The notes beneath the pieces are model-generated. The model was not told the DNA's origin. It was given only the letters and a program-made list of their open reading frames with translations, and searched no databases. Positions 1,565 through 38,638 of a stretch of 40,877 nt of DNA are shown piece by piece (the first letter of the stretch is position 1; the number at the start of each line of letters is the position of its first letter). The DNA lies in the NCBI GenBank assembly GCA_003155175.1, contig PMFP01000085.1, forward strand, positions 21,403-62,279, given 5' to 3'. A program made the translations under genes and the position numbers. Source of the stretch: Vulcanimicrobiota bacterium (lineage in GTDB: Bacteria; Vulcanimicrobiota; Vulcanimicrobiia; Vulcanimicrobiales; Vulcanimicrobiaceae).

Positions 1565-1587
1565 GAAACCTCAGCGTAAGCGTACGT

Positions 1588-2565: not shown

Positions 2566-2568
2566 CTA

Positions 2569-24612: not shown

Positions 24613-24709
24613 AACGTGAAACGTTTAACGCCGGGTGAACCGCCTTTTCCTGCGTTGCCGTGCTGAAGGCGCGACTACGCGAGAGTGAGAAAAGCTCGGC
24701 GGTATCGAC
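24613..24709. promoter_or_regulatory. divergent intergenic region (LptD-like operon leftward, deoB/glycan cluster rightward)
   Basis: A 97-bp gap between divergent start codons, so promoters for both transcription units must lie here. No motif could be assigned confidently. Confidence 0.3.
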
Positions 24710-25831
24710 ATGGCACGCTCTGTAACGATCGTACTGGACTCCGGAGGCGTTGGGGCGTTGCCCGATTTCGCGGCGTACGGCGATGCGCCCGGCGCGAATA
24801 CGATCGGGAACGTCGCGCGCTCCGTCGGCGGTCTCGCTCTGCCGAATTTTGCCCGTCTCGGACTGGGCGTTTTGTCCGACATCGAGGGCGTTGAGCCGAC
24901 CGCCCGGCCGCTTGCGCGTGTCGCGCGCTTGCGAGAGCGCAGCCGCGGAAAAGACACCATCACGGGGCACTGGGAGATGATGGACGTGATCACCGAGGTT
25001 CCGTTCCCGACCTTTCCGGACGGGTTCCCGCGGGAGGTTGTAGAGGCATTTACCGCGATCGCGGGACGTCCGCCGCTGGGAAATCGCCCGGCCTCGGGGA
25101 CCGAGATCATTGCCGAACTGGGGCCCGAGCACGTGGCAACCGGGCGACCCATCCTCTATACGTCGGCCGATTCGGTTTTCCAAGTTGCCGCCCACGAGGA
25201 GGTAGTTCCTCTGGAGACCTTGTACGAATGGTGCGAGAGGTCCCGAGAGATGCTGGTCTCGCCGAACAACGTCAACCGAGTTATCGCGCGGCCCTTCGCA
25301 GGGCGGCCGGGGAGCTTCGTAAGGACGCCGAACCGTCGCGATTACGCAATACCTCCTCCGCCGTGCATACTTGACGAGTTGGCCGCCGCGAACGTACCGG
25401 TCCACGCGATCGGCAAGATTTGCGACATCTACTGCGGGCATGGGATCGCCTCGTCGGTTCGCGCGGCCGACAACGACGAGGCGATGGAGAGGACGTTCGA
25501 TTTGCTGCAGCGGCTGGATGGCGGGTTCATCTTTACCAATTTGAACGACTTCGATTCGAAGTACGGTCATCGCCGAAACGTTCGCGGATACGCCGGTGCT
25601 CTCGAACGGCTCGACGCCTTGTTGCCTCGTCTTGAAGCCGCGCTTCGACCGGGCGACCAGCTGACGTTCACTGCGGACCACGGCTGCGATCCCACCGCTC
25701 CCGGCACCGATCACACGCGCGAGTACGTCCCCTTCCTCCATCTCCGCCCCGGTCAAAGCGGAGAGGATCTCGGAGTTCTTCAGGGGCTCGATATCGTGGG
25801 GCGTGTCGTTAAGGAGGCGTTCGCAGCCTGA
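24710..25831 (+). CDS. deoB: phosphopentomutase
   Basis: 373 aa. Shows TIVLDSGGVGALPD, ANTIGNV, the motif GKDTITGHWEMM and FTADHGCDP, as in the alkaline-phosphatase-superfamily DeoB. Confidence 0.85.
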   Translation: MARSVTIVLDSGGVGALPDFAAYGDAPGANTIGNVARSVGGLALPNFARLGLGVLSDIEGVEPTARPLARVARLRERSRGKDTITGHWEMMDVITEVPFPTFPDGFPREVVEAFTAIAGRPPLGNRPASGTEIIAELGPEHVATGRPILYTSADSVFQVAAHEEVVPLETLYEWCERSREMLVSPNNVNRVIARPFAGRPGSFVRTPNRRDYAIPPPPCILDELAAANVPVHAIGKICDIYCGHGIASSVRAADNDEAMERTFDLLQRLDGGFIFTNLNDFDSKYGHRRNVRGYAGALERLDALLPRLEAALRPGDQLTFTADHGCDPTAPGTDHTREYVPFLHLRPGQSGEDLGVLQGLDIVGRVVKEAFAA

Positions 25832-26475
25832 TGCAGCTGGCGATTTCTCCCGCCGCGGAGCGTGAAGTGCCGGCAGCGTGGAAGACGGCCAAGCGCGCGA
25901 TCGACGTCGGACTCGGATCCTGCCTCCTGGTTCTAGCCTCGCCCATCGTGGCGATCGCGGCCATCGGGATCGTCTGCGTCACGGGGGGCTCGCCTTGGTT
26001 CGCGCAAGAGCGCGTCGGCATGGACGGCCGTCGCTTTAGAATGTACAAACTGCGCACCATGGTCCGTGGAGCGGAAGAGATGCGCGACGAGCTCTTGCAC
26101 CTCAATGAAATCGCCGGCCCCGTCTTTAAGATTCGCAACGACCCGCGGCTTCATCCACTCGGGGGCTTGCTTCGCAGAACCAGTATCGACGAATTACCGA
26201 ACCTGATTAACGTCGTAGCGGGGCACATGTCGCTGGTCGGGCCGCGGCCGGCCCTGCCCTGCGAAGTCGCGACCTACGATTCGCTGGCCATGCGGCGCCT
26301 GACCGTTCCTCAGGGCGTGACCTGCACCTGGCAGATCAGCGGGCGCAGCCGAGTTTCGTTTGACGAGTGGATGCGCCTGGATAACGAGTACGTCGACACG
26401 TGGAATCCGCTCGGCGATCTCGCCATCATTGCAAAAACCATTCCGGCGGTCATTCGCAGGCGCGGCGCTCATTAG
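25831..26475 (+). CDS. small monotopic phosphoglycosyl transferase (bacterial sugar transferase family, WbaP/PglC-like)
   Basis: 214 aa. It has an N-terminal re-entrant helix (AKRAIDVGLGSCLLVLASPIVAIAAIGI), then RFRMYKLRTM, GPVFKIRNDPR and DELPNLINVVAGHMSLVGPRP. The ATG overlaps the deoB stop (TGATG). Confidence 0.9.
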   Translation: MQLAISPAAEREVPAAWKTAKRAIDVGLGSCLLVLASPIVAIAAIGIVCVTGGSPWFAQERVGMDGRRFRMYKLRTMVRGAEEMRDELLHLNEIAGPVFKIRNDPRLHPLGGLLRRTSIDELPNLINVVAGHMSLVGPRPALPCEVATYDSLAMRRLTVPQGVTCTWQISGRSRVSFDEWMRLDNEYVDTWNPLGDLAIIAKTIPAVIRRRGAH

Positions 26476-26551
26476 GCCGCATCTGCGCGTCGTTCCGCTC
26501 GAGGGGGCGCCGCGACCACGACTCTCACTGGCCTCTTCGACGTTATTCGTC

Positions 26552-28096
26552 ATGGCGGCGACGTTCGCGTCGGCTCTCCTGGGCTTCGCGCGCGAGGTCG
26601 TCAACGCGAAGTTTTACGGCACGCAATGGGAAATGGACACGTTTCTTGCGGCGGCGACGATCCCGACGATCTTGTTCGGGGTCTTTAACGGGGCGCTCGT
26701 GAGCGCGCTCGTTCCTACGTTCACCGACTACATCGCACGAGGGCGCGAAGACGACGCGTGGCTGCTCGGAAACACGATCGTCAACCTGCTTGCGCTCGTA
26801 TTGACGGTCTGCGCGGTCGCGGGGTTCGTCACTGCGGGTTGGTACGTGCCGCTTATCGCCCACGGATTCCCCGCGCCGCAGATGGGCGTCGCGGTCCGGA
26901 TGACGCGATGGCTCATGCCGACGATCGTGGCCGTCAGCCTGAGCGGAGTCTTTTCGGCGATGCTCAACGCGTACCATCGCTTTCGCGTGGCGTCCATGGT
27001 CGGCGTAGTCTTGAACGTCGTTACGATAACGACCGTCGTTCTGCTCAATCACAAGATCGGTATTTTCGCCCTCGTGCTCGGCACGACGTTGGGATTGATC
27101 GCCCAGATGGCGGTTCAGATTCCGTCGTTCTTGTCAATCGGCAAGTACCGCTTCGTCATGGACCTGCAGCATCCGGGCCTGCGAAAGATCTGGGAGCTTC
27201 TCGGCCCGATCATCGTCGCGTCGGCCGCCGGCCAGATCGCGCTGTTCTTCGATCGGTTTTTTGCGTCCACGCTGTCGCCCGGCTATATGGCCGGCATGAA
27301 CTATGCGACGAAGCTCGTCTACTTTCCGCAGCAAGTCTTCGGCGCGGCCATTGCGACCGTGATATTTCCGTTGCTGGCCGCCCACTACGCACGCGACAAT
27401 CGCCGCGGCGTAGCGGGCACCCTCGTCACCGGCTTGAGGTTGGTCAATTTCATTACGATTCCCGCGATGTGCGTGTTGATCGTATTGGCGCACCCGATGG
27501 TGGAGACGCTGTTCCAGCGCGGCAGTTTCCAAGCGAGCGCCACGGACTTGACCGCCGGTCTCATGCCCTATGCGGCGTTCGGGCTCGTCGCGCTCGCCGC
27601 CAATATCGTGTTGACCCGTTGCTGCTTCGCGTGTCACGAAACGGCGGCTCCCGTCGGCATCTCCGTGATCACGGTGCTGCTCAACGTCACGCTTTCGTTG
27701 GTATGGCTGCCGAGTTTGGGTGCGCGCGGCCTGCTGCTTGCGAATTCGGTAAGCCAGTCGTTACAGGCGCTTCTTTTGCTCGGCGTGGTTGCGAGGATCG
27801 TTTCGGGAATCAACTGGCGCGCTCTCTCGATTTCGACTCTGAAGATCGTCGTGGCCTCGACGGCGATGGTGCTTGCGCTCAACTGGATTAAGGCGCTGGG
27901 CGTGCATCCCGAACCGACGCTGGCCTCGCGAGCTTGGTTCCTCTTCGGGCAGATGACCATAGGAGGGCTGGTCTTCGTGGCCGTTGCGCGCGCGATTTCC
28001 GTTGACGAACTGACGCTGGCCTGGCAGACGATTATTGCCAAGTTCGAGCGCAACTTGATCGTGCCGCCCGAAAACCGCGATGCGCCGATCGCGTAA
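26552..28096 (+). CDS. murJ: MurJ/MviN-family (MOP superfamily) lipid-linked glycan flippase
   Basis: MAATFASALLGFAREVVNAKFYGTQWEMDTFLAAATIPTILFGVFNGALVSALVPTF is the canonical MurJ N-terminus, followed by about 14 TM segments. The first canonical start is the ATG at 26552. A slightly longer N-terminus from a non-canonical codon (CTG at 26528) cannot be excluded. Confidence 0.8.
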   Translation: MAATFASALLGFAREVVNAKFYGTQWEMDTFLAAATIPTILFGVFNGALVSALVPTFTDYIARGREDDAWLLGNTIVNLLALVLTVCAVAGFVTAGWYVPLIAHGFPAPQMGVAVRMTRWLMPTIVAVSLSGVFSAMLNAYHRFRVASMVGVVLNVVTITTVVLLNHKIGIFALVLGTTLGLIAQMAVQIPSFLSIGKYRFVMDLQHPGLRKIWELLGPIIVASAAGQIALFFDRFFASTLSPGYMAGMNYATKLVYFPQQVFGAAIATVIFPLLAAHYARDNRRGVAGTLVTGLRLVNFITIPAMCVLIVLAHPMVETLFQRGSFQASATDLTAGLMPYAAFGLVALAANIVLTRCCFACHETAAPVGISVITVLLNVTLSLVWLPSLGARGLLLANSVSQSLQALLLLGVVARIVSGINWRALSISTLKIVVASTAMVLALNWIKALGVHPEPTLASRAWFLFGQMTIGGLVFVAVARAISVDELTLAWQTIIAKFERNLIVPPENRDAPIA

Positions 28097-28101
28097 CGTT
28101 C

Positions 28102-30084
28102 GTGCCTAGCGGGCCACGGTTCTCGATCGTCATCCCGGCTCACAACGAGGAATCGCGCATAGGGCCGACTCTGCGTGCGTATCTCGACGGGTTCGAAGAC
28201 TCCGAGGTCATCGTCGTCCTCAACGGTTGCACCGACGCCACCCCCGCGCTCGTTCGCGCCGGTACGGCCGGTCGAAAGAATGCAAAGGTCGTTCAGCTCG
28301 ATGACGCCGTGGGGAAGGGCGGCGCGGTCCGCGTGGGTTTTTTGGTCGCCGATGCGCCGATCGTTGCCTACGTGGATGCCGACGGCGCAACGTCGCCCGA
28401 AGAGATGCGCCGGTTGTGCGAACTCCTAGGGCCTGGTGACGACGCCATTATCGGCTCGCGTTGGAAGAGCGGTGCGGACGTGCACGTAAGGCAGGGTCTT
28501 CCGCGCCGGGTTGCCAGCCGGTGCTTCAACGTGTTGGTGCGCGCGCTCTTCGGCCTCCCGTACTCCGACACGCAGTGCGGAGCCAAAGTGTTTCGACGGG
28601 ATAGCCTGTACGCCGCGATGATGACCGTCGAGACGGCGAACTTCGCCTTTGACGTGGATCTGCTCTTCGTTCTCGACAGGCGCGGCATGAACGTGCGGGA
28701 GGTGCCCACCGTCTGGAAGGACGTTGCCGGTTCGCACGTCCCGTTGGTGCCCGCCTCGCTCAAGATGCTCGCTTCGATCCTGCGCTTGCGCCTTCAGTAT
28801 TCGTTCTTCCGCACGATAGTCCCGATGTTCGATCGGCTGTTCCCCACAAATCCGATCGCGCTGCACGACGGTTTCCGGATCCTGGTCCTGAACTGGCGCG
28901 ATCCGAAGCACCCGCAAGCGGGGGGCGCGGAAGCGTACCTCTACGAGATCGCGAGACGATGGGTCGCGCAAGGCCACTCGGTCGAATGGTTGACGGCATC
29001 CTTTCCGGGAGCCGCCCGCACCGAGCTACTCGACGGGATCAAGATCACGCGCGTCGGCGACCGGTTCTCGGTGTACTTTCGCGTGCCTTTGGAATACTTG
29101 CGGTCCTGTCGCGATCGGTTCGACGTCATACTCGACGCGGAGAACGGCGTGCCGTTCTTCAGCCCGCTCTACTCGCTGAAACCGAAGCTGTGTTTGATCT
29201 TCCACGTGCACGTCGACGTTTTTCGAAAACATCTGCCGTGGCCCGTATCGGAAGTATTCGTTTGGCTCGAGACCTGGCTGGTTCCCCGCCTCTATCGGGG
29301 GGCTAAGTTCGTCGCGATATCGGAGGATACGAGACGCGCGATGCGCGAGGCGAGACTGACCGATCGGCCCGTTGGAATGGTATATAGCGGCGTCGACTCG
29401 GCTCTCGTTCCCGGTACGAAGGCCGAGATTCCGACGGTGCTCTATCTCGGGCGACTCATGCCGTATAAACGCGTCGACTTGCTGATCGCGGCGTTTGCGG
29501 AAGTGCGCGAGCGCGTCCCGGATGCCGTGCTCTGCATAGCGGGAAGCGGTCCGGCGGAAGCCGGCTTGAGAGAGCTCGTGCGCTCGCTTCGCCTCGACGA
29601 GGCGGTGACGTTTGAGGGTTTCGTCGACGAGCGGCGCAAGCGCGAGCTGCTGCAAAGTGCGTGGGCGTTTTGCAACCCGTCCGAGATGGAGGGTTGGGGA
29701 ATCTCGATCATCGAGGCAAACGCGTGTGCGACGCCGGCCGTCGCCTTCGCGGTCCCGGGCCTGCGGGAAGCGATCCTGGACGGGGAAAGCGGAATGCTCG
29801 TGCCGGAAGGAGGCGAACTCGCGAAGCCAATCGTTCGACTCCTGACCGACGCTCCGTGGCGTCTGCGTTTGGAGGAGGGAGCAAAAAAGCGCGCATCGGC
29901 TTTTTCCTGGGATCGCACCGCCGACGCGATGCTCGAACAGGTCGTGCAGGTCGTGACCGGCGATTGGTTCGGCTTGGAACGCACGACGAAGCGCTGGTCG
30001 TTGATGAAGAAGCGCTCGGTAAACGGGCAGAGCGAACGGGGTTCGCCCGTTACGGAAAGCATTCCGATCGACGTCATTTACTAG
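28102..30084 (+). CDS. bifunctional glycosyltransferase: N-terminal GT2 domain fused to a C-terminal GT4 (GT-B) domain
   Basis: 660 aa. The GT2 half shows FSIVIPAHNEE, NGCTDAT and VDADGAT (DxD). The GT4 half starts near FRILVLNWRDPKHPQAGGAEAY and contains EGWGISIIEANACATPAVAF (the E-x7-E region). Confidence 0.8.
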   Translation: MPSGPRFSIVIPAHNEESRIGPTLRAYLDGFEDSEVIVVLNGCTDATPALVRAGTAGRKNAKVVQLDDAVGKGGAVRVGFLVADAPIVAYVDADGATSPEEMRRLCELLGPGDDAIIGSRWKSGADVHVRQGLPRRVASRCFNVLVRALFGLPYSDTQCGAKVFRRDSLYAAMMTVETANFAFDVDLLFVLDRRGMNVREVPTVWKDVAGSHVPLVPASLKMLASILRLRLQYSFFRTIVPMFDRLFPTNPIALHDGFRILVLNWRDPKHPQAGGAEAYLYEIARRWVAQGHSVEWLTASFPGAARTELLDGIKITRVGDRFSVYFRVPLEYLRSCRDRFDVILDAENGVPFFSPLYSLKPKLCLIFHVHVDVFRKHLPWPVSEVFVWLETWLVPRLYRGAKFVAISEDTRRAMREARLTDRPVGMVYSGVDSALVPGTKAEIPTVLYLGRLMPYKRVDLLIAAFAEVRERVPDAVLCIAGSGPAEAGLRELVRSLRLDEAVTFEGFVDERRKRELLQSAWAFCNPSEMEGWGISIIEANACATPAVAFAVPGLREAILDGESGMLVPEGGELAKPIVRLLTDAPWRLRLEEGAKKRASAFSWDRTADAMLEQVVQVVTGDWFGLERTTKRWSLMKKRSVNGQSERGSPVTESIPIDVIY

Positions 30085-30150
30085 GAGGAACCCAAGCGGC
30101 GACGACGCATTGTTGTAGGCCACCGCCGCATTTGAAGGGTCCTCTTTGCC

Positions 30151-30426
30151 GTGTCCTCCGACGAAATCTATCAGCAGCTGTCCAGCATCATGCGCGACGT
30201 GTTCGACGACGATTCGCTCGTCGCAACGCCCGAGCTCACCGCGGGGCAGGTTGACGGCTGGGACAGCTTCTCGCACCTGCGCTTGATGCTTTCGATCGAG
30301 CGGTCGTTCGGCGTTGACTTCGCGGCTTCGGAGATATCGTCCTTAAAGAACGTCGGCGAGCTGGCTGCGCTCATTGGGTCGAAGCTCCCGGCAGAACGTG
30401 CGGGTTCACCTAGCGAAGAATCGTGA
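30151..30426 (+). CDS. acyl/peptidyl carrier protein (DltC-like stand-alone ACP)
   Basis: 91 aa with a GTG start. The phosphopantetheine attachment context is QVDGWDSFSHLRLMLSIE. The stop overlaps the MBOAT start (GTGA at 30423-30426). Confidence 0.8.
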   Translation: MSSDEIYQQLSSIMRDVFDDDSLVATPELTAGQVDGWDSFSHLRLMLSIERSFGVDFAASEISSLKNVGELAALIGSKLPAERAGSPSEES

Positions 30427-31859
30427 ACGTCCCGTCGCTCGCGTTTCTCGGCCTGGTCGCCGTCGTTGCCCTCCTTCTTGCGATTTCCAGAAGCCACGGT
30501 TGGCGCTCCGCGCTGCTGCTCGTCGCCAACGTCGGCTTCGTCTTAACGTTCTCTCACGATCTGCGTCAGCTCGCTCCGTTTGCCGCGCTCCTGGCCGGTG
30601 GCTTCGTCGCGATGCGATTGATGCACTCGCAAAAGAACCCCGCCGTTTTCGCGACGGCCATCGGCGCCCTGGTTCTTCTCTTTTGCTGGCTCAAGCGATA
30701 CACGTTCTTTCCTCCCGGGGCTCTGCTGCCGTTCGTCTACCTTACGGTCGGGATGTCGTACGTGTTCTTTCGCGTGCTGAGCCTGGTCGTCGACGCCTAC
30801 CAGGACAGCTTGCCCGAGCGCGTCGGCATCGTGCGTTTCCTCAACTATACGCTGAACTTCCCGGCTTTCGTCTCGGGCCCGATCCAGTTCTATCGCGACT
30901 ATAGGCGCGACGAATCCGAAAGCCCCGCGGCGCTCGATCTCTCCATTGCGGGGAAGTCGATCGAGCGCATCGTCATCGGCTTTTTCAAAGTCACGGTCGT
31001 CTCGCCGGTCTTGGCGAGCTTCCAGGACCGCGCCGTAGCGGCGGCGTCCGCGAACCTCTCGCCCGGTCTGCGCACGCTCGACGCGGCGCTCCTTCTGGCT
31101 CTGTTCCCGATTCTGCTCTACGCGAATTTTTCCGGGTATACCGACGTCGTCATCGGCGCCGCGCGATTCATGCGCTTCGAGCTTCCGGAAAACTTCGACC
31201 GTCCGTTCTCCTCGAAGAGCTATCTCGAGTTTTGGAGCCGGTGGCACATGTCGCTCTCGAATTGGTTCAAGACTTACGTCTATTCGCCGCTGCTGCTCAA
31301 CCTCATGAGGCGCTTCCCGTCGCGCAACGTCGAACCGTTTCTCGGCGTGATCGCGTTCTTCGCGACGTTCTTCCTGGTGGGACTTTGGCACGGCCAGACC
31401 GCGATGTTCGTGGTCCTCGGCTTGCTGATGGGTTTGGGCATCAGCGGGAACAAGCTCTATCAGATCGAGATGATTCGCCGCATGGGCCGGGCGCCGTACC
31501 GGGCCTTGTGCGCGAATCCGCTCTATGAGGCCGCATCGCGCGGACTCACGTTTCTGTGGCTTTCCTTTACGTTGGTCTTTTTCTGGGCGACGTGGCCGGA
31601 GCTTGAGGGCCTCGTCGCGCATCTGGGAGCGGTGCCGATCGCTTCCGCCATGCTGCTGACGTTCGCCGTTGGCGCGGTCGTGCTGACGGCGACGACGGCG
31701 CTGGTGGACCGCTATCGGGCCGTCTTCGAGGAGGGCTCGCTGGCGGGGCTCTCCGCGTTCGCGCGGCCGGCTTGGTATACCGCGATCGCCGTCGTCACCG
31801 CGTCCGTCGCGGTCATGCTCGACGCCCCCGCTCCGCACATCATCTACCGAGGTTTCTAA
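30423..31859 (+). CDS. MBOAT-family membrane O-acyltransferase (DltB/AlgI-like)
   Basis: 478 aa and polytopic. Shows FPAFVSGPIQFYRDY, NFSGYTDVVIG, the catalytic-His motif FWSRWHMSLSNWFKTYVY and GLWHG. Confidence 0.9.
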   Translation: MNVPSLAFLGLVAVVALLLAISRSHGWRSALLLVANVGFVLTFSHDLRQLAPFAALLAGGFVAMRLMHSQKNPAVFATAIGALVLLFCWLKRYTFFPPGALLPFVYLTVGMSYVFFRVLSLVVDAYQDSLPERVGIVRFLNYTLNFPAFVSGPIQFYRDYRRDESESPAALDLSIAGKSIERIVIGFFKVTVVSPVLASFQDRAVAAASANLSPGLRTLDAALLLALFPILLYANFSGYTDVVIGAARFMRFELPENFDRPFSSKSYLEFWSRWHMSLSNWFKTYVYSPLLLNLMRRFPSRNVEPFLGVIAFFATFFLVGLWHGQTAMFVVLGLLMGLGISGNKLYQIEMIRRMGRAPYRALCANPLYEAASRGLTFLWLSFTLVFFWATWPELEGLVAHLGAVPIASAMLLTFAVGAVVLTATTALVDRYRAVFEEGSLAGLSAFARPAWYTAIAVVTASVAVMLDAPAPHIIYRGF

Positions 31860-31860
31860 C

Positions 31861-32763
31861 ATGTCCGCCGATCTCAAACCGTTTACCGACGAAGTCGTCC
31901 TGCAGAACCCGTTGCACGAAAAATTTCTCACGTCGTCGCTTGAGGGAATGTCCGACGATCTGAAGCGCGAGCTCGGCGACTACCTCGAGTACTGCGGCGC
32001 CCGCGGCCTGAGCACCGAATATCTGGCCGACTGCTACAACACGATCGTAAACGACACGCGAACCGAGCAGATGTACTTTTGGAAGCACGGCAAGTACCGG
32101 TACGAACGGTTTAAAGACGTGGCCGACAAAGTATATCTCGACCGCAACTACATGAACAAATACATGTACGGACTGGCCTTGACGTCGTTCCTTTGGCCCA
32201 ATCATGCGGAGCTCGGCGAGTTTTTTGAGCGAACTTTCCGGCGCGGCCAAAAGGGCGCGTATCTAGAGATCGGGCCCGGTCACGGTTACTACCTCAAACG
32301 GGCTGCCGAGCTGGGTGCGTTCGAAACGCTAACCGGCATCGACCTGAGTCCCACCAGCGTGGACATGACCCGCGAGATCCTCGCGCACGCCGGTTTCACG
32401 GACGCGAACGGCGTGCACGTGATGGAACGCGATTTTCTCGAATTCAGCGGCGACGACGCGACGTATTCGTGCATCGTGATGGGCGAGGTTCTCGAACACG
32501 TTGAGGACCCGGGACTCTTTCTCCGGAAGATTGCCGAACTGAGCGACCCCGACGCGCACATCTTCATTACGACCTGCTGCAACGCGCCGGCAGTCGATCA
32601 CATTTTCCTCTTCCGCACGCCTGCCGAAGTCGAAGAACTGATACGAAGCAATGGATTGGAGATCGTCGATTCGGTCTACGTGCCGTATGCGGGTAAGACG
32701 CTAGAGCAATGCGAGCGCGACGCACTCTCCGTGAACGTCGCATACGTTCTTAGGAAGCGGTAG
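31861..32763 (+). CDS. class I SAM-dependent methyltransferase with a roughly 120-aa N-terminal extension
   Basis: 300 aa. Motif I is AYLEIGPGHGYY, post-I is LTGIDLSP and motif II is YSCIVMGEVLEHVEDP. The start lies 1 nt after the MBOAT stop. Confidence 0.8.
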   Translation: MSADLKPFTDEVVLQNPLHEKFLTSSLEGMSDDLKRELGDYLEYCGARGLSTEYLADCYNTIVNDTRTEQMYFWKHGKYRYERFKDVADKVYLDRNYMNKYMYGLALTSFLWPNHAELGEFFERTFRRGQKGAYLEIGPGHGYYLKRAAELGAFETLTGIDLSPTSVDMTREILAHAGFTDANGVHVMERDFLEFSGDDATYSCIVMGEVLEHVEDPGLFLRKIAELSDPDAHIFITTCCNAPAVDHIFLFRTPAEVEELIRSNGLEIVDSVYVPYAGKTLEQCERDALSVNVAYVLRKR

Positions 32764-33152
32764 TGCTGGGGCTCGCTTTCCACCACATCGGTATTGCCTG
32801 CGCGGATATCGAAAAGACCGCGCGCTACGTGCGCGAAGCCTACGTCGTCGAGTCGGACTCGGGTACGGTTCACGATCCGCTGCAAGACGTTTACGTACGC
32901 CTCTTCAACGAAGGTACGCCCGGGGCGATCGAACTGGTGTCGGGGCCGGCCGTCGAAAAACTCGTAAAATCGCACGTGACCTACTACCACGTTTGCTACG
33001 CGACGGACGACCTCGAAGCGTCGATCGCCGCGGCGAAGGCCGCGGGGGCGATGCTGGTCTCGTCTCCCAAGCCGGCCGTGCTGTTCGGCGGGCGTCGCGT
33101 CGCGTTCGTGTTCACGGAGCTCGGACTCGTCGAGTTCGTCGAAAAGGCCTAA
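32763..33152 (+). CDS. VOC (glyoxalase/bleomycin-resistance/dioxygenase) superfamily protein, methylmalonyl-CoA-epimerase-like
   Basis: 129 aa with a GTG start overlapping the previous stop. The segments LAFHHIGIACADIEKTARYV and YYHVCYATDDLEASIAAAKAAG form the paired beta-alpha-beta-beta-beta modules with metal-ligand His/Glu positions seen in MCE-type epimerases. Confidence 0.65.
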   Translation: MLGLAFHHIGIACADIEKTARYVREAYVVESDSGTVHDPLQDVYVRLFNEGTPGAIELVSGPAVEKLVKSHVTYYHVCYATDDLEASIAAAKAAGAMLVSSPKPAVLFGGRRVAFVFTELGLVEFVEKA

Positions 33153-33159
33153 CGCGATC

Positions 33160-34131
33160 GTGCCCGCCGACAAGGCCAAGCGCGGCCTCGCCGTATTCGC
33201 CGTTTCGATCGCCGTCGTCGTCGCGCTCGTGGCCCTCGAGAATCTCCTCATCGCGAGCTACTTCCCGCGGCTGGAGCGGCTGCCCGAAGACGTCTCGCCT
33301 GCCTATCTCAAGCGCGAGATCGCGCTCATCGCAGCGTCGCCGCCCGCCGTGATTTTTCTAGGCGATTCGGTGGTTTGGGGGTATCGCGTCGAGCCCGGTC
33401 AGACGGCGGTGTCGATCTTGACGCGCCGGGGTTGCAATTGCCGCAACCTTGCGCTGCGGGCCGGTAGCCCGCCGAACGACTACGCGATCGTGCGGCTTCT
33501 CCTGGCTGCCGGGGTTCGCCCCAAAGCCGTGGTTCTCGAGATCGATCAGAAATCGTTCAACGCATCCGACGCCGACTACGCTCGCCTCCTACCCGGCATC
33601 GCGGCGCTCGCCACGCCGCTCTTCGCCCCCGCCGATCGCAGGCTTCTCGCGCCGCCGGTAGAGTCCGACGGAATCGCGCGACGCTCCGATCGCGCGCTTT
33701 CGTCCCTTTGGCTGCTTTACGCAATGCGCGCCGACATCCGCGGAACGTACTTTCCGCCTCCCGAGGAGATTCCGGTAACGCATCCGACGGCGGACATGTA
33801 CATGGGAACGTACGACCTGACTCCGCTTACGGACGCGAACCTGGGCGTGCACTTTCTAACCCAGACCGTCGACCTGCTGCGCGACGCAGGCGTTCCCGTC
33901 ATCGCGTTCATGACGCCGACGAACCACACGCTGCTCCACGATTACATCGACAGCGACGCCTATCGAGCCAATGGCGAGTTTCTCAAAAATCTGCTCGAGA
34001 GACGGGGCGTGCGCGTCGTCGACCTCGACACGGCCTTTCCGTCCGATCTCTTCTTCGACAACGCGCATCTGCGGCCGGCCGGCCAAGAGCTGCTCGCCGC
34101 CAAACTCGAGCCTGCGTTGCCGGCTAAATGA
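33160..34131 (+). CDS. membrane-anchored SGNH/GDSL-fold hydrolase or acyltransferase (DltD/AlgJ-like topology)
   Basis: 323 aa. It has a single N-terminal TM (LAVFAVSIAVVVALVAL). Block I is VIFLGDSVVWG, a block III-like element is SPPND, and block V is FFDNAHLRPAG (DxxH). Confidence 0.65.
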   Translation: MPADKAKRGLAVFAVSIAVVVALVALENLLIASYFPRLERLPEDVSPAYLKREIALIAASPPAVIFLGDSVVWGYRVEPGQTAVSILTRRGCNCRNLALRAGSPPNDYAIVRLLLAAGVRPKAVVLEIDQKSFNASDADYARLLPGIAALATPLFAPADRRLLAPPVESDGIARRSDRALSSLWLLYAMRADIRGTYFPPPEEIPVTHPTADMYMGTYDLTPLTDANLGVHFLTQTVDLLRDAGVPVIAFMTPTNHTLLHDYIDSDAYRANGEFLKNLLERRGVRVVDLDTAFPSDLFFDNAHLRPAGQELLAAKLEPALPAK

Positions 34132-36046
34132 GGATTGCTTCGTCGAATCCCGAGCGGACTACGCTCATCGGTGCCGCGGGAACGTCCGCGCCGGTGGATA
34201 TCTCGTAGCGGCGCTCGCCGCTTTCGCTCTCGTCAACGAGACGAAATCCCAGTTTGTCGTAGTGTTCCCGCACCATGCCGTTCCGGTCGGTCGGACGATA
34301 TACGCCTATCACGCGCTCCACGCCGCGCCCGCGGGCGTGCTGCAGAATCTCGCGCAGCACCATCTGCTCGACGCGGCGGCCAAGAACGCGGCAACTCATC
34401 AGCCACGTATCGATTTCCCACTCCGCAGCGGAGATCTCGCGGCAGACGTTGACGCCGATCATGCCGTTGTCGCCGAACGTGTCGACGAGGCGAACTTGCA
34501 GCGTGAAGCAGGCGGGATCGGACGCGATGGCGGCGATCTCGGCTTCGTTGTACCGTCTCGTGGTGAGATTAAACTGATTCGACTTGTTGACGAGCTGCGC
34601 GATCCGCGCGCGTCCCGGTGCGTCGAAGGGCCGGAAATCGATCTGCATCTCGAGCGAGGCGAGGTAGCCTTCGAGATCCCCGACCCGCTCGCGGAGCTCG
34701 ACGCGGCGGGCGTTGGCTTGATAGGCGTCGCCACGGGCGGCGTCCTCGGTCGAGAATGCGATACCCTCGAAGTACCCGGCCGCCGAGAGCGTACGCGCGT
34801 AGTATGCGGGGTCGGGCGGAAGTTCCGGCACAGCGACTTCCGGCAGCGATTTGCGGATCAGCCCGCGCTCGACCGGATTGTCGTCGAGAAAGACCATGGC
34901 GTCCGTGCCGAGCGAGAGGGCGGAGGCAATCGCGGCGATGTTGGTCGCCTTGTCGTCCCAATTTGCTTGGAAAACCGCGATGTGATCTTCTTGAAGCAGC
35001 ATCTCGGTATGGCCGCGGAAGGGCAAGCGCGCCGTTGCGTCGTCGTTTTTGGAGGACACCGCCAGCACGACGCCGCGATCGCGCAACGCCAGCGCCGTCC
35101 GCTGTACCTCGAGATAGGCCTCGCCGGTTGCGTTGCCCTGCCCGAGGACGATGCCCTCGATGCCGTCGTCGCCGATGATGCCGCCCCACACCGTATTGTC
35201 GAGATCGAGGATCAGGCATCGCCGGCTCTTGCCGCGGAGCGCGCCGACGAGCCTCGCGCAGTGCTCGGCGTAGAGCGGAAGATACTTGCTGTCGAACGCG
35301 AGTTTTCCGAGATTCCATTGCTTGGGCGAATGCCAATCGCCCAGTCCCACGGTTTCGGCCAAACCGGCGACGTCGAAGAGGACGTCTTGACTGCCGCGAA
35401 CGCTTTGGACCAACGCGGCGTTGAATGCGTCCACGAGCGCACGCGGCGTTCCGGGTACGCAGCGGTCGTAACCTCCGAACAACGTCTCCGGCGGCGGCGG
35501 CAGCGTTTGTACGATGCTGAGCGCCTTCCCGTGCGCGCCGAAACCGTCCCGAAGGCTTCCAAGGAATCCGAGCGCCGCGTCCACGCTGCGGAGCGAAACG
35601 CCCTCGTCTCGCGGATCGGCGCGGAACGGAAGTCCGCGATAATCGAGCGCGAGGAGCACGGCATCCGGCTGCCAACGATTGATGCTCGAATCGGGGTCGA
35701 ACGCTTCTTGCGCGGTCTGTCCGAAATCCGCCGCCATACACTCGAGCGCGATGCCGTGACGCGCCGCGCTCCCGACGAGCAGCGGTACGAGATAGTCGAG
35801 CGTCCCATTTCCCACGACGGCGAGCTTGAACGGCGACAAGGGCTCGAGCGTCCGCCCCGCCGCGGACGCCTCGCGGATCGCACGCGCCAGTTGCCGCAAT
35901 TGGTTTTCGTCCAGCGCGTAACCGGCGAGTCGCGCGAGCGCGTTACCCGCCGCGTCGTTCGAACGGACCACGTTGCGGCATCGCTCGCGAAAATCGGCGG
36001 GAGGCTTGGGTAGCCAAGTGAGATGAGCGTAGAGATCTGCTGCCAC
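34124..36046 (-). CDS. FkbH-like HAD-IIIC phosphatase/acyl-transferase (three-domain form)
   Basis: About 640 aa from the GTG at 36046; the track ORF start at 36151 would overlap the upstream gene. HAD motif I is CLILDLDNTVWGGIIGDDG and a later HAD motif is MVFLDDNP. The C-terminal FkbH/GNAT-like domain contains NKSNQFNLTTRRY and the conserved-Cys motif WLMSCRVLGRRVE. Confidence 0.85.
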   Translation of the reverse strand: MAADLYAHLTWLPKPPADFRERCRNVVRSNDAAGNALARLAGYALDENQLRQLARAIREASAAGRTLEPLSPFKLAVVGNGTLDYLVPLLVGSAARHGIALECMAADFGQTAQEAFDPDSSINRWQPDAVLLALDYRGLPFRADPRDEGVSLRSVDAALGFLGSLRDGFGAHGKALSIVQTLPPPPETLFGGYDRCVPGTPRALVDAFNAALVQSVRGSQDVLFDVAGLAETVGLGDWHSPKQWNLGKLAFDSKYLPLYAEHCARLVGALRGKSRRCLILDLDNTVWGGIIGDDGIEGIVLGQGNATGEAYLEVQRTALALRDRGVVLAVSSKNDDATARLPFRGHTEMLLQEDHIAVFQANWDDKATNIAAIASALSLGTDAMVFLDDNPVERGLIRKSLPEVAVPELPPDPAYYARTLSAAGYFEGIAFSTEDAARGDAYQANARRVELRERVGDLEGYLASLEMQIDFRPFDAPGRARIAQLVNKSNQFNLTTRRYNEAEIAAIASDPACFTLQVRLVDTFGDNGMIGVNVCREISAAEWEIDTWLMSCRVLGRRVEQMVLREILQHARGRGVERVIGVYRPTDRNGMVREHYDKLGFRLVDESESGERRYEISTGADVPAAPMSVVRSGFDEAILI

Positions 36047-36057
36047 GTGAAATCCGC

Positions 36058-36735
36058 TTAAGGAGAAGGGGTCGCCGCTCGCGCCGCGTTCAAGACGTCG
36101 ACGAAATCCTGCCCGACGATCTGATTTCCGGACGTGCTCGGATGCGCCCAATTGCGCATGAGCGTGCTCGGGAACGGTCCGTCGTTGAATCTACGGTCGG
36201 CGGCAAGGTCCACGAGCAACAATTTGTTCTGTGACGCAAAGCCGCGAAGCCACTGGTTGTACGCATCGAGATCGGCGCGAACGCGCTCTTGTTGCGCGTT
36301 GTTGATGTAGGTGGCGATCACGATCGTGGCGTGCGGACACCGTTGCCGCACCGCCTGATAGACTTGCGCGAACTGCGATTGAACCGTCGAGATCGGCACT
36401 GCCTGCCGAATCAGATCGCCGCCGCCCGTTTCGAGCGTAACCAATTTGCAGGCCGGATTACCGGATGGAATCTTCGGAACTTCTACGTTGAGCGCGTAAG
36501 CCGCGCTCGAACCGCCCAGGGCCAGGTTCTCGAGCGTGAGGCCCGGGAACGCCTTAACGACGACCTGCGCGAACTGCTCGTCGTTGTAGCGGTCGTTCGA
36601 TATCGAGTCGCCGATCGCGTAGTAGGTCCCGTTGGTCAGGTCTACTTTAGAGCCTTGCGCTTGCGCGATCGCGACGCCGCTACTTAGTAGCGGCGCGCAC
36701 AGCGCGATGCCCATGACGTATGCGACGTATTTCAT
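36058..36735 (-). CDS. secreted SGNH/GDSL esterase
   Basis: 225 aa. The signal peptide is MKYVAYVMGIALCAPLLSSGVAIAQA. Block I is YAIGDSISN, block II is LALGGSSA, block III is ETGGGDL and the block V-like element is NWAHPSTSGN. Confidence 0.75.
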   Translation of the reverse strand: MKYVAYVMGIALCAPLLSSGVAIAQAQGSKVDLTNGTYYAIGDSISNDRYNDEQFAQVVVKAFPGLTLENLALGGSSAAYALNVEVPKIPSGNPACKLVTLETGGGDLIRQAVPISTVQSQFAQVYQAVRQRCPHATIVIATYINNAQQERVRADLDAYNQWLRGFASQNKLLLVDLAADRRFNDGPFPSTLMRNWAHPSTSGNQIVGQDFVDVLNAARAATPSP

Positions 36736-36835
36736 CAGCGTCCCGGTTCGATGCGGTGCCTCGGGCGCGCCTCTTTTGGAGCGCTAACGCTGCGAACTAG
36801 AGGAACGAGGTGGCCGTCGCCGGGAATCCGGCCGG
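36736..36835. promoter_or_regulatory. divergent intergenic region (SGNH esterase/FkbH-like operon leftward, NHL protein rightward)
   Basis: A 100-bp gap between divergent starts. The call rests on geometry only, with no motif assigned. Confidence 0.3.
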
Positions 36836-38638
36836 GTGCGCTCCCTCATCCTTCTTTTTTTCTGCGTTCTCGGACTCTCGGCTCCGGCGCTACCCGCGAC
36901 CTTCTCTACCATCGCCGGCAGCGGCGCCGCCGGCGTCTCGGACGGCCCGGCGAACGGCGCCACCTTCCTCATGCCCTACGGGGTCGCGGTCTTCCACGGA
37001 ACGATCTACGTGACGGATTTTCTCGGCCAACGCGTGCGAGCGATCGATCCGAACGGAACCGTGCGCACGGTTGCAGGCGGGGGAGCGCTTGGTCCCGACG
37101 GATTGAGCGTTCGCGGCGGCTACCGTGACGGCGCCGCGCTGGACGCACGATTCGACGGTCCGGCGGGGATAGCGATCGACGCGTCCGGCCGAATTTTCGT
37201 CGCGGATTCACGCAACGACTGCATTCGCGTGATTGAGGGCGGGCGCGTTCGCACGTACGCCGGCGCGCCGTCGCGCTCGTACTCCGACGGTCCGCTCTCG
37301 AGTGCCGGCTTCGACGAGCCGGTCGCGCTCGCGATCGACCAAGACGGCACGATGTACGTCGGCGACTTTAATGCGGGCGTCCGGAAAATCACGAAGGACG
37401 GCGCGGTCGGCACGATCGCGCTCCCGCCTGGATTCGATACGACCGTCACGTCCATCGTTCCCAAGCCTTGGGGGCTGCTGATCGCAAACGGACGCTCGAT
37501 GATCTGGCTTCGTCATCCCGGCGCGACGCCGCCCGACTACGACGCTACGATTCCCGAAGCTCCGTTTCCGTTCGAGCTTTCGAACAATCACAGACTCTTC
37601 GCTCAGGACGACGTGGCGACCGGCTATCCGTTCCAGGTGACGAACCTGACGGGCGAGGTTTATGCGTACACGGACCCGCGGCGCATGGCAGTGCGCCTGT
37701 TCGACAACTATTTCGCGTTTGCCGATTCGCTGAGCGAGAGTCCGGCCGAAAACTACTCTGCCTTCGGCGGCGGCTATCAAGACGGACCGATCGGCAAGGT
37801 TCAAGTTCCGCTGGGGATCGCTTCGCTCGGGGCATCCGCCGTCGTCTTTGCCGATGCCGGCAATCGCCGGATTCGTAAAATCTCGAACATCGAAACGCGT
37901 CAGTACGCGTCGCCGTCAACCCCGTTCGGCGACTATAGCGACGGTCAAAAGAACTATCGCATTCTGATCATTTCCGGTTGCTACGGTGCGTGGGGAGTCC
38001 CGTTTTCGGCGAGTCTTGCCGGGCGGCTCGAGGAGCGGCTCGAGGCGGATCGTTCGCGGCTCGGCATCCCCCGCCGGGTCCGGGTGGCGACGATATGGAT
38101 CGGAACCGTCGGCGAAGTGCGGGATTATGCGCGGGACGTCCTCTCGAGCGGCGTGGCCGACCTGGTGGTTTGGGAGTTCAACGACGGCATGCCCAACGAA
38201 GAGTGGGTACCCGAGCGCGACAACCTCACGACGCCGCTCAAGGATATCGATTTCTGGCGGAACTCAATGCAACCCAAACTCGTTTCCATTGGGAAGTCGT
38301 TACGGGAAGCGGGCGTTCCGTTTTACGTCCTCGCCGTGCCCACGCCGCTGTATTTTCCCGCCTCCGAGTTGACATATCGGGATCTCACCCATCCGCCGTT
38401 GGAGCAGACTAGGGACTGGCCGCAGATGTCGTCAATCTATCAGACGATCTTTACTGGGAACGCCGATGGTTTCGTCGACGCGGGGACGGCCATGTTCGCC
38501 CAGGAGAAGCTGCCGGATCACCGGTTGATGTTCCTAACGACGGGCGCATACCAATTGTCCGCTGCGGGTCAAGCCGTCGTGACGGACGCTCTTTTCGACA
38601 CTCTCGCTCACGATCGGCCGTGGGCGCCGAAGCACTAG
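36836..38638 (+). CDS. secreted NHL-repeat beta-propeller protein with a C-terminal alpha/beta (degenerate SGNH-like?) domain
   Basis: 600 aa with a GTG start. The signal peptide is MRSLILLFFCVLGLSAPALPA. Repeated NHL blades include PYGVAVFHGTIYVTDFLGQRVRAIDPNG, PAGIAIDASGRIFVADSRNDCIRVI, PVALAIDQDGTMYVGDFNAGVRKI and VVFADAGNRRIRKI. The C-terminal roughly 230 aa start at YRILIISGCYGAWG. Confidence 0.75.
   Translation: MRSLILLFFCVLGLSAPALPATFSTIAGSGAAGVSDGPANGATFLMPYGVAVFHGTIYVTDFLGQRVRAIDPNGTVRTVAGGGALGPDGLSVRGGYRDGAALDARFDGPAGIAIDASGRIFVADSRNDCIRVIEGGRVRTYAGAPSRSYSDGPLSSAGFDEPVALAIDQDGTMYVGDFNAGVRKITKDGAVGTIALPPGFDTTVTSIVPKPWGLLIANGRSMIWLRHPGATPPDYDATIPEAPFPFELSNNHRLFAQDDVATGYPFQVTNLTGEVYAYTDPRRMAVRLFDNYFAFADSLSESPAENYSAFGGGYQDGPIGKVQVPLGIASLGASAVVFADAGNRRIRKISNIETRQYASPSTPFGDYSDGQKNYRILIISGCYGAWGVPFSASLAGRLEERLEADRSRLGIPRRVRVATIWIGTVGEVRDYARDVLSSGVADLVVWEFNDGMPNEEWVPERDNLTTPLKDIDFWRNSMQPKLVSIGKSLREAGVPFYVLAVPTPLYFPASELTYRDLTHPPLEQTRDWPQMSSIYQTIFTGNADGFVDAGTAMFAQEKLPDHRLMFLTTGAYQLSAAGQAVVTDALFDTLAHDRPWAPKH

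Follow-up and report, generated by a model that had tools for sequence, protein, structure and literature searches.

2,3-Di-O-methylglyceroyl-pseudaminic acid is the only chemically defined output of the kind of gene cassette considered here. It is carried by the flagellin of Campylobacter jejuni 11168, and the dimethylglyceroyl glycan is absent from strains in which fkbH (cj1302) is a pseudogene or which lack cj1301, annotated as an 'epimerase' (PMC3068675, PMC7099621); this strain comparison is correlative, the strains differing at other genes too. Within cj1295-cj1302, the fkbH-domain gene cj1302 directly adjoins cj1301 (PMC7099621). NRPS loading modules of the OMT-FkbH-PCP type are proposed to make 2-O-methylglycerate: in those of suomilide, banyaside and varlaxin (OMT-FkbH-PCP(-ST)), glycerate loaded by FkbH is kept at the glycerate level, and its O-methylation is proposed to occur while tethered (PMC13122637, PMC10143770). 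The methoxymalonyl-ACP pathway (FkbG-FkbK, FK520) likewise combines an FkbH-type loader and a dedicated ACP with SAM-dependent O-methylation of a carrier-bound C3 unit, and D-alanylation of teichoic acids (DltA-DltD) unites in one operon a small carrier protein, a DltB-like MBOAT and an SGNH-type partner anchored in the membrane, by which an acyl group passes from its carrier in the cytoplasm to a polymer outside. The locus described here shares parts with each of these systems. It lies in a stretch of 40,877 nucleotides from a Vulcanimicrobiota bacterium (contig PMFP01000085.1, positions 21,403 to 62,279), hereafter the window, and comprises the following genes, in window coordinates:

30151..30426, plus strand: stand-alone ACP, 91 aa (PF00550, E 3e-4; weak matches to NCBIfam ACP models)
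30423..31859, plus strand: DltB-like MBOAT, 478 aa (PF03062, 65 bits; TIGR04091 DltB, E 2e-51, below cut-off)
31861..32763, plus strand: class I SAM methyltransferase (MT), 300 aa (Methyltransf_23/12/11/31/25)
32763..33152, plus strand: VOC metalloenzyme, 129 aa (PF13669 Glyoxalase_4, 55.5 bits)
33160..34131, plus strand: SGNH/DltD-like membrane-anchored protein, 323 aa (sub-threshold Lipase_GDSL_2 and DUF1574 matches)
34124..36151, minus strand: FkbH-like HAD-IIIC loader, up to 675 aa (TIGR01686, 292 bits, and TIGR01681)

A sequence-only reading of this DNA had set the MT and VOC genes inside an ACP/MBOAT/SGNH operon, and both ORFs are as it placed them: the MBOAT stop codon (TAA, 31857-31859) is followed by a single spacer base and the MT ATG at 31861, the MT stop codon (TAG, 32761-32763) shares its G with the GTG start of the VOC gene at 32763 (a 1-nt overlap), and the VOC stop codon (33150-33152) precedes the SGNH gene start at 33160, with gaps of at most 8 nt in the operon. 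The loader counted by that reading is present, FkbH scoring well above the TIGR01686 cut-off (147 bits) and being the sole FkbH of the assembly, but not as an operon member: its gene is convergent with the operon on the minus strand and thus outside its transcription unit, meaning that co-expression is assumed. An FkbH search of 14 control genomes gave no match. ACP, FkbH, MT and VOC all lie within 6 kb in the window, so that the gene set of an FkbH/ACP/methyltransferase/VOC glycan-acyl cassette of the C. jejuni cj1299-cj1302 type is complete and clustered, and the phosphopantetheine serine of the ACP can be read in GWDSFSHL. Upstream glycan genes encode a sugar transferase, a MurJ-type flippase and GT2-GT4 enzymes. 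The window holds no ketosynthase or PKS/NRPS gene, and no nonulosonic-acid genes are found among its annotated ORFs.

The window MT is a class I SAM-dependent methyltransferase, with a Rossmann core and a glycine-rich SAM motif (LEIGPGHG) that is invariant across its family. Canonical SAM motifs preceded by an unrecognised N-terminal domain of about 120 residues had been described from the sequence, and this is what the profiles give: Methyltransf_23 (62.5 bits, cut-off 27) and four related models begin only at residue ~117-135, while nothing in Pfam or NCBIfam matches residues 1-125. In the AlphaFold model (pLDDT 94), these residues are predicted to form seven helices, ahead of a Rossmann-like core of alternating strands and helices. 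YMxKYMYGL and GEVLEHV are invariant motifs of this N-terminal cap. Structure searches with this model (Foldseek, VIA-align) returned generic class I methyltransferases only, with flat scores (TM ~0.5; Z 15-17) and no CCoAOMT-type entry among the matches listed, and found the N-terminal cap in no solved protein; thus, the substrate and regiochemistry of the MT cannot be read from its relatives. The MT does not belong to the FkbG type: PF01596 (Methyltransf_3) gives no match at E<=0.01, and the assembly's only PF01596 gene is on contig C12. Clustering with methyltransferases of sugars or lipids, which would have told against the sequence-only reading, is not seen either: the MT has a family to itself (~530 clusters at 50% identity, full-length matches, E<=1e-30), tied to FkbH by synteny and fusions. 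BioC-like carboxyl methylation was considered and set aside, the matches being weak and glyceryl-ACP having no free carboxyl.

The VOC protein is a member of the VOC superfamily (Glyoxalase_4), PF13669 being covered over its full profile length (cut-off 27 bits). Its description as epimerase-like is only partly borne out. The signature motifs (FHHIGIAC ... YYHVCYAT) do carry the HHIG...YHVCY pattern, but the protein is closer to glyoxalase I: its best solved relatives are C. acetobutylicum glyoxalase I (PDB 2QH0/3HDP, E 2e-14), versus E ~1e-3 for methylmalonyl-CoA epimerases, and a Clostridium cassette VOC matches the Ni-bound C. acetobutylicum enzyme at E 1e-29. The likeness to this enzyme extends to a single-domain VOC fold of ~130 aa and to aligned His/Glu/His/Glu ligands. 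Conservation of the metal ligands, which the sequence-only reading had singled out for inspection, is high: His8, Glu57, His76 and Glu124 are 90-100% conserved among 78 cassette VOCs. Glu57 aligns with the Gln of solved epimerases, whose ligands we take to be His/Gln/His/Glu (1JC5), and this Glu is kept in 90% of the 78. Judged by sequence, the metal site is therefore of the glyoxalase-I type, not of the epimerase type. Both curated models remain well below threshold, TIGR03081 (methylmalonyl-CoA epimerase) giving 34.5 bits for a cut-off of 114.95 and TIGR00068 (glyoxalase I) 16.4 bits for a cut-off of 120. An extradiol dioxygenase was also considered and rejected, as the ligands are His/Glu/His/Glu and not 2-His-1-Glu.

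The association of these genes is not peculiar to the window. We compared 82 MT loci, which come from Eremiobacterota, Acidobacteriota, Actinomycetota, Pseudomonadota, Cyanobacteriota, Planctomycetota, Patescibacteria and others. FkbH occurs with the MT in 74 of them, a VOC in 71 (usually directly downstream) and an ACP of 75-110 aa in 71. An MBOAT is present in 59 of the 82; of the 49 loci with 6 kb or more of sequence on each side, 37 have an MBOAT no further than 9 kb from the MT. In many phyla the VOC gene adjoins the MT gene or is fused to it, so their pairing is not due to chance. RefSeq labels for these proteins are generic (acyl carrier protein, HAD-IIIC phosphatase, class I methyltransferase, VOC protein). 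The window SGNH protein is conserved only in the closest relatives (loci L007 and L008); in other lineages, a protein of ~400 aa that shows no pairwise similarity to it follows the MBOAT and occupies its role. The VOC is missing from some cassettes (loci L088 and L089), and a second MT paralogue takes its slot in a related Eremiobacterota genome, meaning that it is not essential to the core chemistry. In one variant, a MaoC dehydratase takes the VOC slot.

Gene fusions place the MT among enzymes of the acyl donor. A search for longer MT-containing proteins (526-2000 aa) recovered an FkbH::MT fusion of 871 aa flanked by ACP and VOC genes, to whose FkbH part the window FkbH is 31% identical over 529 aa. 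Further fusions are three of VOC::MT, one of them in a VOC::MT-ACP-MBOAT locus (its VOC half 36% identical to the window VOC); an MT::MaoC dehydratase fusion in an FkbH-MT::MaoC-ACP-MBOAT locus; and AAC(3)-like N-acyltransferase::MT and GNAT::MT fusions. Being fused to FkbH, VOC, MaoC and an N-acyltransferase, the MT would act on a carrier-bound acyl donor rather than on sugars. The transfer enzyme, for its part, is exchanged. An AAC(3)-like N-acyltransferase accompanies the MT in an O-antigen-type locus of Chamaesiphon and in a nonulosonic-acid/Maf locus of Motilimonas, where MT-VOC-FkbH-ACP, the N-acyltransferase and a Cj1295-like DUF4910 protein lie within a NeuB/Maf/CMP-transferase locus and the MT is of the same family as the window MT (43% identity). 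Firmicutes loci have an uncharacterised 330-aa protein and a CE4 deacetylase adjoining flagellin or S-layer genes, and in the MT tree the MBOAT-coupled forms interleave with the others. Since the MT is kept when one transfer enzyme gives way to another, it belongs to the donor side. We consider it rather likely that the MT and VOC of the window tailor the acyl unit on its carrier, within a conserved cassette of four parts, FkbH/ACP/MT/VOC.

From gene order, family memberships, conservation of the cassette, gene fusions and the absent dehydrogenases, we infer the following route, including each chemical step, its regiochemistry, the stereochemical role of the VOC enzyme and the acceptor. FkbH would, by analogy with characterised FkbH enzymes, load a D-glyceryl unit from 1,3-bisphosphoglycerate onto the ACP, and the resulting glyceryl-ACP is presumably its product. 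The MT, which we propose to be the O-methyltransferase of glyceryl-ACP, would then methylate the tethered thioester in the cytoplasm, most likely at the 2-hydroxyl, with one or two methylations both possible. SAM is cytoplasmic and the MT has no signal peptide or membrane segment, so methylation must precede export by the MBOAT. For the VOC enzyme, we propose a carrier-bound thioester with a 2-hydroxy- or 2-methoxy-acyl group as the substrate, from which it would abstract the C2 proton: its divalent metal site would hold the C2 oxygen together with the carbonyl of the thioester, most probably leading to inversion at C2, epimerisation being the reaction that we favour. The glyoxalase I product, a 2-hydroxyacyl thioester, is a close analogue of glyceryl-S-pantetheine, and the MaoC dehydratase reaction also begins with removal of a C2 proton from a thioester. 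The finished acyl-ACP would be passed to the DltB-like MBOAT, which, with the SGNH/DltD-like protein as its presumed extracytoplasmic partner, would carry the acyl group through the membrane and attach it to the glycan of the upstream genes; the methylated glycerate group is thus probably exported onto a cell-surface sugar polymer. Taken as a whole, a new Dlt-like pathway in which FkbH loads a C3 unit drawn from glycolysis, this unit undergoes methylation and C2 inversion on its carrier, and the MBOAT exports it to O-acylate an extracytoplasmic glycan is a tentative proposal, to which we give slightly less than even chances.

Other readings account for part of the evidence. FkbH, an ACP and a methyltransferase make up three of the five parts of the methoxymalonyl pathway, and the locus could serve ordinary methoxymalonyl- or hydroxymalonyl-ACP synthesis, with the MT in the role of FkbG and dehydrogenases encoded elsewhere. 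The assembly is 82% complete and has 3-hydroxyacyl-CoA and acyl-CoA dehydrogenases on other contigs (its PF02737 and PF00441 matches all lie there), and in a Terracidiphilus locus a 577-aa protein with a weak Acyl-CoA_dh_N match adjoins the cassette. We nevertheless hold this to be highly improbable. The sequence-only reading had noted a loader, an ACP and an MT accompanied by neither dehydrogenase and had called for a search of the wider contig: this contig encodes no FkbK/FkbI-type dehydrogenase, its sole weak dehydrogenase match being a UDP-glucose dehydrogenase 28 kb away, and no dehydrogenase family is conserved across the 82 MT loci. The MT, moreover, is devoid of a PF01596 match, the window lacks any polyketide or peptide assembly line, and the receiver of the acyl group is an MBOAT or an N-acyltransferase, not a synthase. 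The earlier suggestion that the unit stays at the glycerate oxidation level and is O-methylated agrees instead with the C. jejuni glycan product, 2,3-di-O-methylglyceroyl-pseudaminic acid (PMC3068675, PMC7099621). 'Truncated methoxymalonyl logic', as that reading put it, is a fair analogy but not a derivation: the cassette is independent and widespread, and there are earlier precedents for O-methylglycerate on a carrier.

The MT might alternatively methylate a sugar hydroxyl of the glycan, or an acyl group already transferred, next to a VOC that is an unrelated detoxifying glyoxalase and merely co-located. Methyltransferases are frequent in polysaccharide loci, the sugar O-methyltransferases RebM and AtmM are among the structural matches of the MT, and the closest solved VOC is named glyoxalase I. 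This is unlikely in our view, given that FkbH, ACP and VOC stay beside the MT while glycan type and transfer enzyme change, that the MT is fused to FkbH and to VOC in other genomes, and that the MBOAT form puts the acyl group outside the cytoplasm, where SAM is absent; the structural scores, spread over dozens of unrelated methyltransferases, single out no family. Somewhat less improbable, if still doubtful, is that the cassette is correctly read but the VOC is no epimerase, acting instead in elimination to a 2-methoxyacryloyl group, in a 1,2-hydrogen shift, or as a non-catalytic presenter of the ACP-bound substrate to the MT. Its glyoxalase-type ligands, its replacement by MaoC and its dispensability in some cassettes all fit such a role, and VOC::MT fusions would also fit a structural partnership. 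Conservation of all four metal ligands, on the other hand, argues for catalysis, and the C. jejuni product is saturated and keeps both oxygens, which best suits a reaction that leaves the mass unchanged (PMC3068675). A glyoxalase reaction run backwards would detach the unit from its carrier and is energetically unfavourable.

If the proposed pathway is correct, the envelopes of soil Acidobacteriota, Actinomycetota, Alphaproteobacteria and Eremiobacterota would widely bear a modification that has gone unrecognised, (methyl)glyceroyl esters, and a first function would fall to two uncharacterised proteins of the route to dimethylglyceroyl-pseudaminic acid in Campylobacter, its methyltransferase and its 'epimerase'. 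Solving the cassette would link genes to the dimethylglyceroyl groups on Campylobacter flagellin sugars, bring to light a new ester substituent on the envelope glycans of abundant soil bacteria, and show that MBOAT/Dlt-type exporters carry cargo besides D-alanine or acetate. The literature yielded no biochemical study or enzyme assay of the FkbH/ACP/MT/VOC cassette. Cultured carriers (Terrabacter sp. Root85, Nocardioides jensenii, N. marmoriginsengisoli and Marmoricola sp. URHB0036) make the cassette hypothesis directly testable.

While the window genes resemble each of the known systems in part, there are a number of differences: (i), the cassette lacks both dehydrogenases of the methoxymalonyl-ACP pathway, its MT is UbiG-like (Methyltransf_23/11/12) with its own helical cap and is not a Methyltransf_3 enzyme, and it adds a VOC and delivers its product to an acyltransferase, not to a polyketide synthase; (ii), in D-alanylation the carrier is charged by an adenylating DltA and the cargo is not tailored, whereas in the window loading falls to an FkbH phosphatase/acyltransferase that draws on an intermediate of glycolysis, and two extra enzymes would modify the cargo on its carrier before export; (iii), the suomilide, banyaside and varlaxin modules are megasynthetase domains that feed a peptide, and in 401 cyanobacterial genomes, where suomilide-type producers may be unsampled, we found three stand-alone MT family members and no copy embedded in a larger protein at E<=1e-10; (iv), glyoxalase I and methylmalonyl-CoA epimerases handle a proton next to a thioester, as the window VOC is proposed to do, but the window VOC reaches the curated threshold of neither family, carries Glu in place of the epimerase Gln, and by its context is predicted to use a carrier-bound substrate and not a glutathione or CoA thioester. 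The idea of the cassette is not wholly new, the same gene set being found in nonulosonic-acid and flagellin loci. Its coupling to an MBOAT appears to be unreported: no relevant paper came from literature searches joining FkbH with DltB or exopolysaccharide, and those joining FkbH with MBOAT gave aeruginosin/suomilide papers only. This coupling implies extracytoplasmic O-(methyl)glyceroylation. Cj1300 and Cj1301 are likened to the window MT and VOC by published annotation words and gene order; no Campylobacter protein is among the listed matches of the MT homologue searches, the representative search or the cluster look-ups, the latter made with the most AT-rich MT family members. The glycan acylated in the window would be a different one from that of C. 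jejuni and the number of methyl groups may differ too, and where C. jejuni uses a soluble N-acyltransferase that places the acyl group onto a sugar nitrogen in the cytoplasm, the MBOAT and SGNH protein of the window imply O-acylation outside it.

ORF and profile searches of the window place the ACP, MBOAT, methyltransferase, VOC and SGNH genes in a tightly packed plus-strand run, with the loader on the other strand.

Gene layout around the cassette (window coordinates)
Plus strand, first in the packed run: phosphopentomutase
Plus strand, after the phosphopentomutase: polyprenyl-phosphate sugar transferase
Plus strand, after the sugar transferase: MurJ-type flippase
Plus strand, after the flippase: GT2-GT4 fusion, ending 66 nt before the ACP gene
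30151-30426, plus strand: ACP
30423-31859, plus strand: DltB-like MBOAT
31861-32763, plus strand: methyltransferase
32763-33152, plus strand: VOC protein
33160-34131, plus strand: SGNH-like protein
Minus strand, convergent with the operon: FkbH-like loader

The junctions are as the sequence-only reading described them: one spacer base separates the MBOAT stop from the methyltransferase start, and one base is shared by the methyltransferase stop and the VOC start. The loader it recognised, genuine by profile (TIGR01686, 292 bits), is encoded on the strand opposite to the operon; a profile search of the assembly finds this FkbH gene only. Among the fetched relatives of the methyltransferase, the closest (81% identity) comes from a Vulcanimicrobiota MAG, and the source genome is Eremiobacterota/Vulcanimicrobiota-like. 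Near its left end (449-3900, minus strand) the window encodes a DegT-type aminotransferase, an NAD-dependent sugar epimerase/dehydratase and a UDP-glucose dehydrogenase, which could possibly supply precursors for the cassette-decorated glycan; iPGM and TIM genes lie alongside.

The cassette recurs. All ORFs within about 8 kb of the methyltransferase were clustered across 82 loci (80 fetched loci with relatives, the window and one fusion locus); its neighbours are FkbH (74/82), VOC (71/82, usually directly downstream), ACP (71/82) and MBOAT (59/82). Many missing partners are cases at contig ends; in a later tally, 49 of 85 loci have 6 kb or more on each side, and of these 47 carry FkbH and 37 an MBOAT. 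No conserved dehydrogenase family was found among the ORFs within about 8 kb in the 82 loci. The proposal that loader, ACP and methyltransferase occur here without FkbK or FkbI nearby is borne out on the window's contig, in an assembly that is 82% complete: the single weak dehydrogenase match on the contig is a UDP-glucose dehydrogenase 28 kb off, and all 3-hydroxyacyl-CoA and acyl-CoA dehydrogenase domains of the assembly are on other contigs. In an Acidobacteriaceae/Terracidiphilus locus (L001:11506-14670), the cassette's neighbours include a B12-binding radical SAM enzyme and a protein of 577 aa whose match to Acyl-CoA_dh_N is weak; they may form an extra tailoring branch in Acidobacteria.

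The methyltransferase is not an FkbG-like enzyme by family membership: Pfam profile searches give no match to Methyltransf_3, the family of FkbG. Its Pfam matches (Methyltransf_23/12/11/31/25, class I SAM) begin only at about residue 117, and among NCBIfam models UbiG comes nearest, with BioC a weak match. Residues 1-125 are nevertheless conserved, with full-length matches in 1531 database proteins and a full-length family of about 530 clusters at 50% identity (E<=1e-30), so this N-terminal region is no artefact; the family alignment has many invariant residues, including a YMxKYMYGL block, His115, His213 and Asp246-His247. The AlphaFold model (pLDDT 94) has a Rossmann core capped by seven helices. 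Structure comparison by Foldseek and by exhaustive alignment gives flat scores against dozens of unrelated small-molecule methyltransferases, and the cap is found in none of them. Taken together, these results make the methyltransferase a distinct family without a name.

The label of the VOC protein as epimerase-like likewise has to be given up. The protein matches Glyoxalase_4 in Pfam and scores far below the curated thresholds of both the methylmalonyl-CoA epimerase (34.5 versus 115 bits) and glyoxalase I (16.4 versus 120 bits) models. Among solved structures it comes closest to that of the Ni-bound glyoxalase I from Clostridium acetobutylicum (3HDP/2QH0, E 2e-14), with epimerases at E about 1e-3. 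Across 78 aligned VOC proteins drawn from related cassettes, His8 (97%), Glu57 (90%), His76 (90%) and Glu124 (100%) are retained; because Glu57 stands where epimerases have their Gln ligand, the predicted metal site is of the glyoxalase I type. The VOC protein of a Clostridium paridis FkbH-MT-ACP-VOC cassette (MT, methyltransferase; L090:11164-11556, by flagellin) matches 3HDP over its full length (E 1e-29), and the "glyoxalase I" of that structure may likewise come from such a cassette.

Gene fusions in other genomes tie the methyltransferase to the loader, the VOC protein and enzymes for which acyl thioesters are substrates or donors. An 871-aa FkbH::MT fusion lies between ACP and VOC genes, with overlapping starts, and three proteins are VOC::MT fusions, one of them in a VOC::MT-ACP-MBOAT locus with a VOC half 36% identical to that of the window (E 5e-30). 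The methyltransferase is also fused to an AAC(3)-like N-acyltransferase, to a GNAT and, in place of the VOC protein, to a MaoC dehydratase (P0237; L096:997-7018, FkbH-MT::MaoC-ACP-MBOAT-350 aa), which would predict a dehydrated cargo of 2-methoxyacryloyl or pyruvoyl type. In an Eremiobacterota MAG (CAWAJD010000008.1, L008:9980-11814; ACP-MBOAT-MT1-MT2, FkbH convergent), the VOC slot is taken by another methyltransferase, a divergent paralogue (29-33% identity, cap partly included); here each hydroxyl may have its own enzyme, and inversion may not occur.

The delivery enzyme varies. The MBOAT form is dominant among the closest relatives of the methyltransferase. In Motilimonas pumila, genes for an AAC(3)-like N-acyltransferase and a DUF4910/DUF2172 protein come after MT-VOC-FkbH-ACP, and the surrounding genes encode NeuB, a Maf-type protein, a PseG-GNAT fusion, an aminotransferase and a CMP-transferase; Chamaesiphon has an AAC(3)-like gene upstream and a DegT aminotransferase, Wzx flippase, deacetylase and Wzy-like gene downstream. 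Firmicutes cassettes adjoin flagellin, Maf and NeuB genes or S-layer genes, with an uncharacterised protein of about 330 aa and a CE4 deacetylase. In a methyltransferase tree (quick maximum-likelihood search, midpoint root, long branches for fusion proteins), the window protein groups, well supported, with two other Eremiobacterota sequences, all three MBOAT-coupled, and forms with an N-acyltransferase or without a nearby transferase interleave with MBOAT forms, forcing at least three changes. We use the tree for one point only, that the transfer module is exchangeable between cassettes. Two further arrangements were seen: ACP-FkbH-MT-VOC with genes for a hypothetical protein, MprF and an AcvB/VirJ lysyl-PG hydrolase after it, on a Paroceanicella profunda plasmid (L094; NZ_CP040821.1, record 22091-37020), and an LPG_synthase_TM protein with a hexapeptide acyltransferase upstream of the cassette in Woeseiaceae (L076:8418-9983); such cassettes may target a membrane lipid head group, not glycan. 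In Alphaproteobacteria and Bdellovibrionota-like MAGs (L033, L036, L039, L054, L006), the ACP-FkbH-MT-VOC core stands alone beside an aminopeptidase N gene, with no MBOAT or N-acyltransferase within about 8 kb.

Beyond gene content, we infer every step of the following mechanism. Characterised FkbH enzymes make D-glyceryl-ACP from 1,3-bisphosphoglycerate, and the loader would do the same here. The methyltransferase, which lacks an export signal, would then methylate the carrier-tethered unit in the cytoplasm; in the MBOAT form methylation would have to precede transfer, because the acyl group then leaves the SAM-containing compartment. The 2-hydroxyl is the favoured site, since it is also where FkbG and the NRPS enzymes act, the MT::MaoC variant needs a free 3-hydroxyl for dehydration, and the second methyltransferase in the VOC slot of the related Eremiobacterota locus suggests a separate enzyme for each hydroxyl. 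The VOC protein most likely coordinates its substrate on the metal through the thioester carbonyl and the C2 oxygen, in the way that glyoxalase I coordinates its product, a 2-hydroxyacyl thioester; the C2 proton would then be removed, and reprotonation at the opposite face would give an L-configured unit. MaoC dehydratases also begin with C2 proton abstraction from a thioester, and their ability to replace the VOC protein fits this role. The MBOAT and SGNH proteins would finally pass the acyl group from ACP to an ester on the glycan whose synthesis the upstream genes encode.

The glycerate-level chemistry of the sequence-only reading is reasonable and largely supported, but it is not unprecedented. 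What appears unreported is the MBOAT-coupled form: our literature search found no paper combining FkbH with DltB, FkbH with MBOAT only in aeruginosin/suomilide work, and methylglyceric acid in glycans only in Campylobacter flagellin. RefSeq names for the cassette genes are generic. The MBOAT form is present in cultured Actinomycetota (Terrabacter, Nocardioides, Marmoricola), making it testable. In C. jejuni, cj1299 and cj1300, which we take to encode an ACP and a SAM methyltransferase, would make up the same four genes together with cj1301 and cj1302, with methyltransferase, "epimerase" and FkbH ordered as in Motilimonas; the tie is one of annotation and gene order, with the Motilimonas locus as an intermediate. 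Flagellin of strain NCTC 11168 carries pseudaminic acid with 2,3-di-O-methylglyceroyl on N5, a group that needs the aminopeptidase-like Cj1295 (PMC3068675). Dimethylglyceroyl glycans are absent in strain 12664, where the fkbH-domain gene cj1302 is a pseudogene, and in strain 12661, without the annotated epimerase gene cj1301 (PMC7099621). That the C. jejuni product is saturated and fully oxygenated speaks for a mass-neutral VOC step. Cyanobacterial NRPS loading modules (OMT-FkbH-PCP) are proposed makers of 2-O-methylglycerate (PMC13122637, PMC10143770), and therefore glycerate kept as glycerate and O-methylated on its carrier has a precedent there too.
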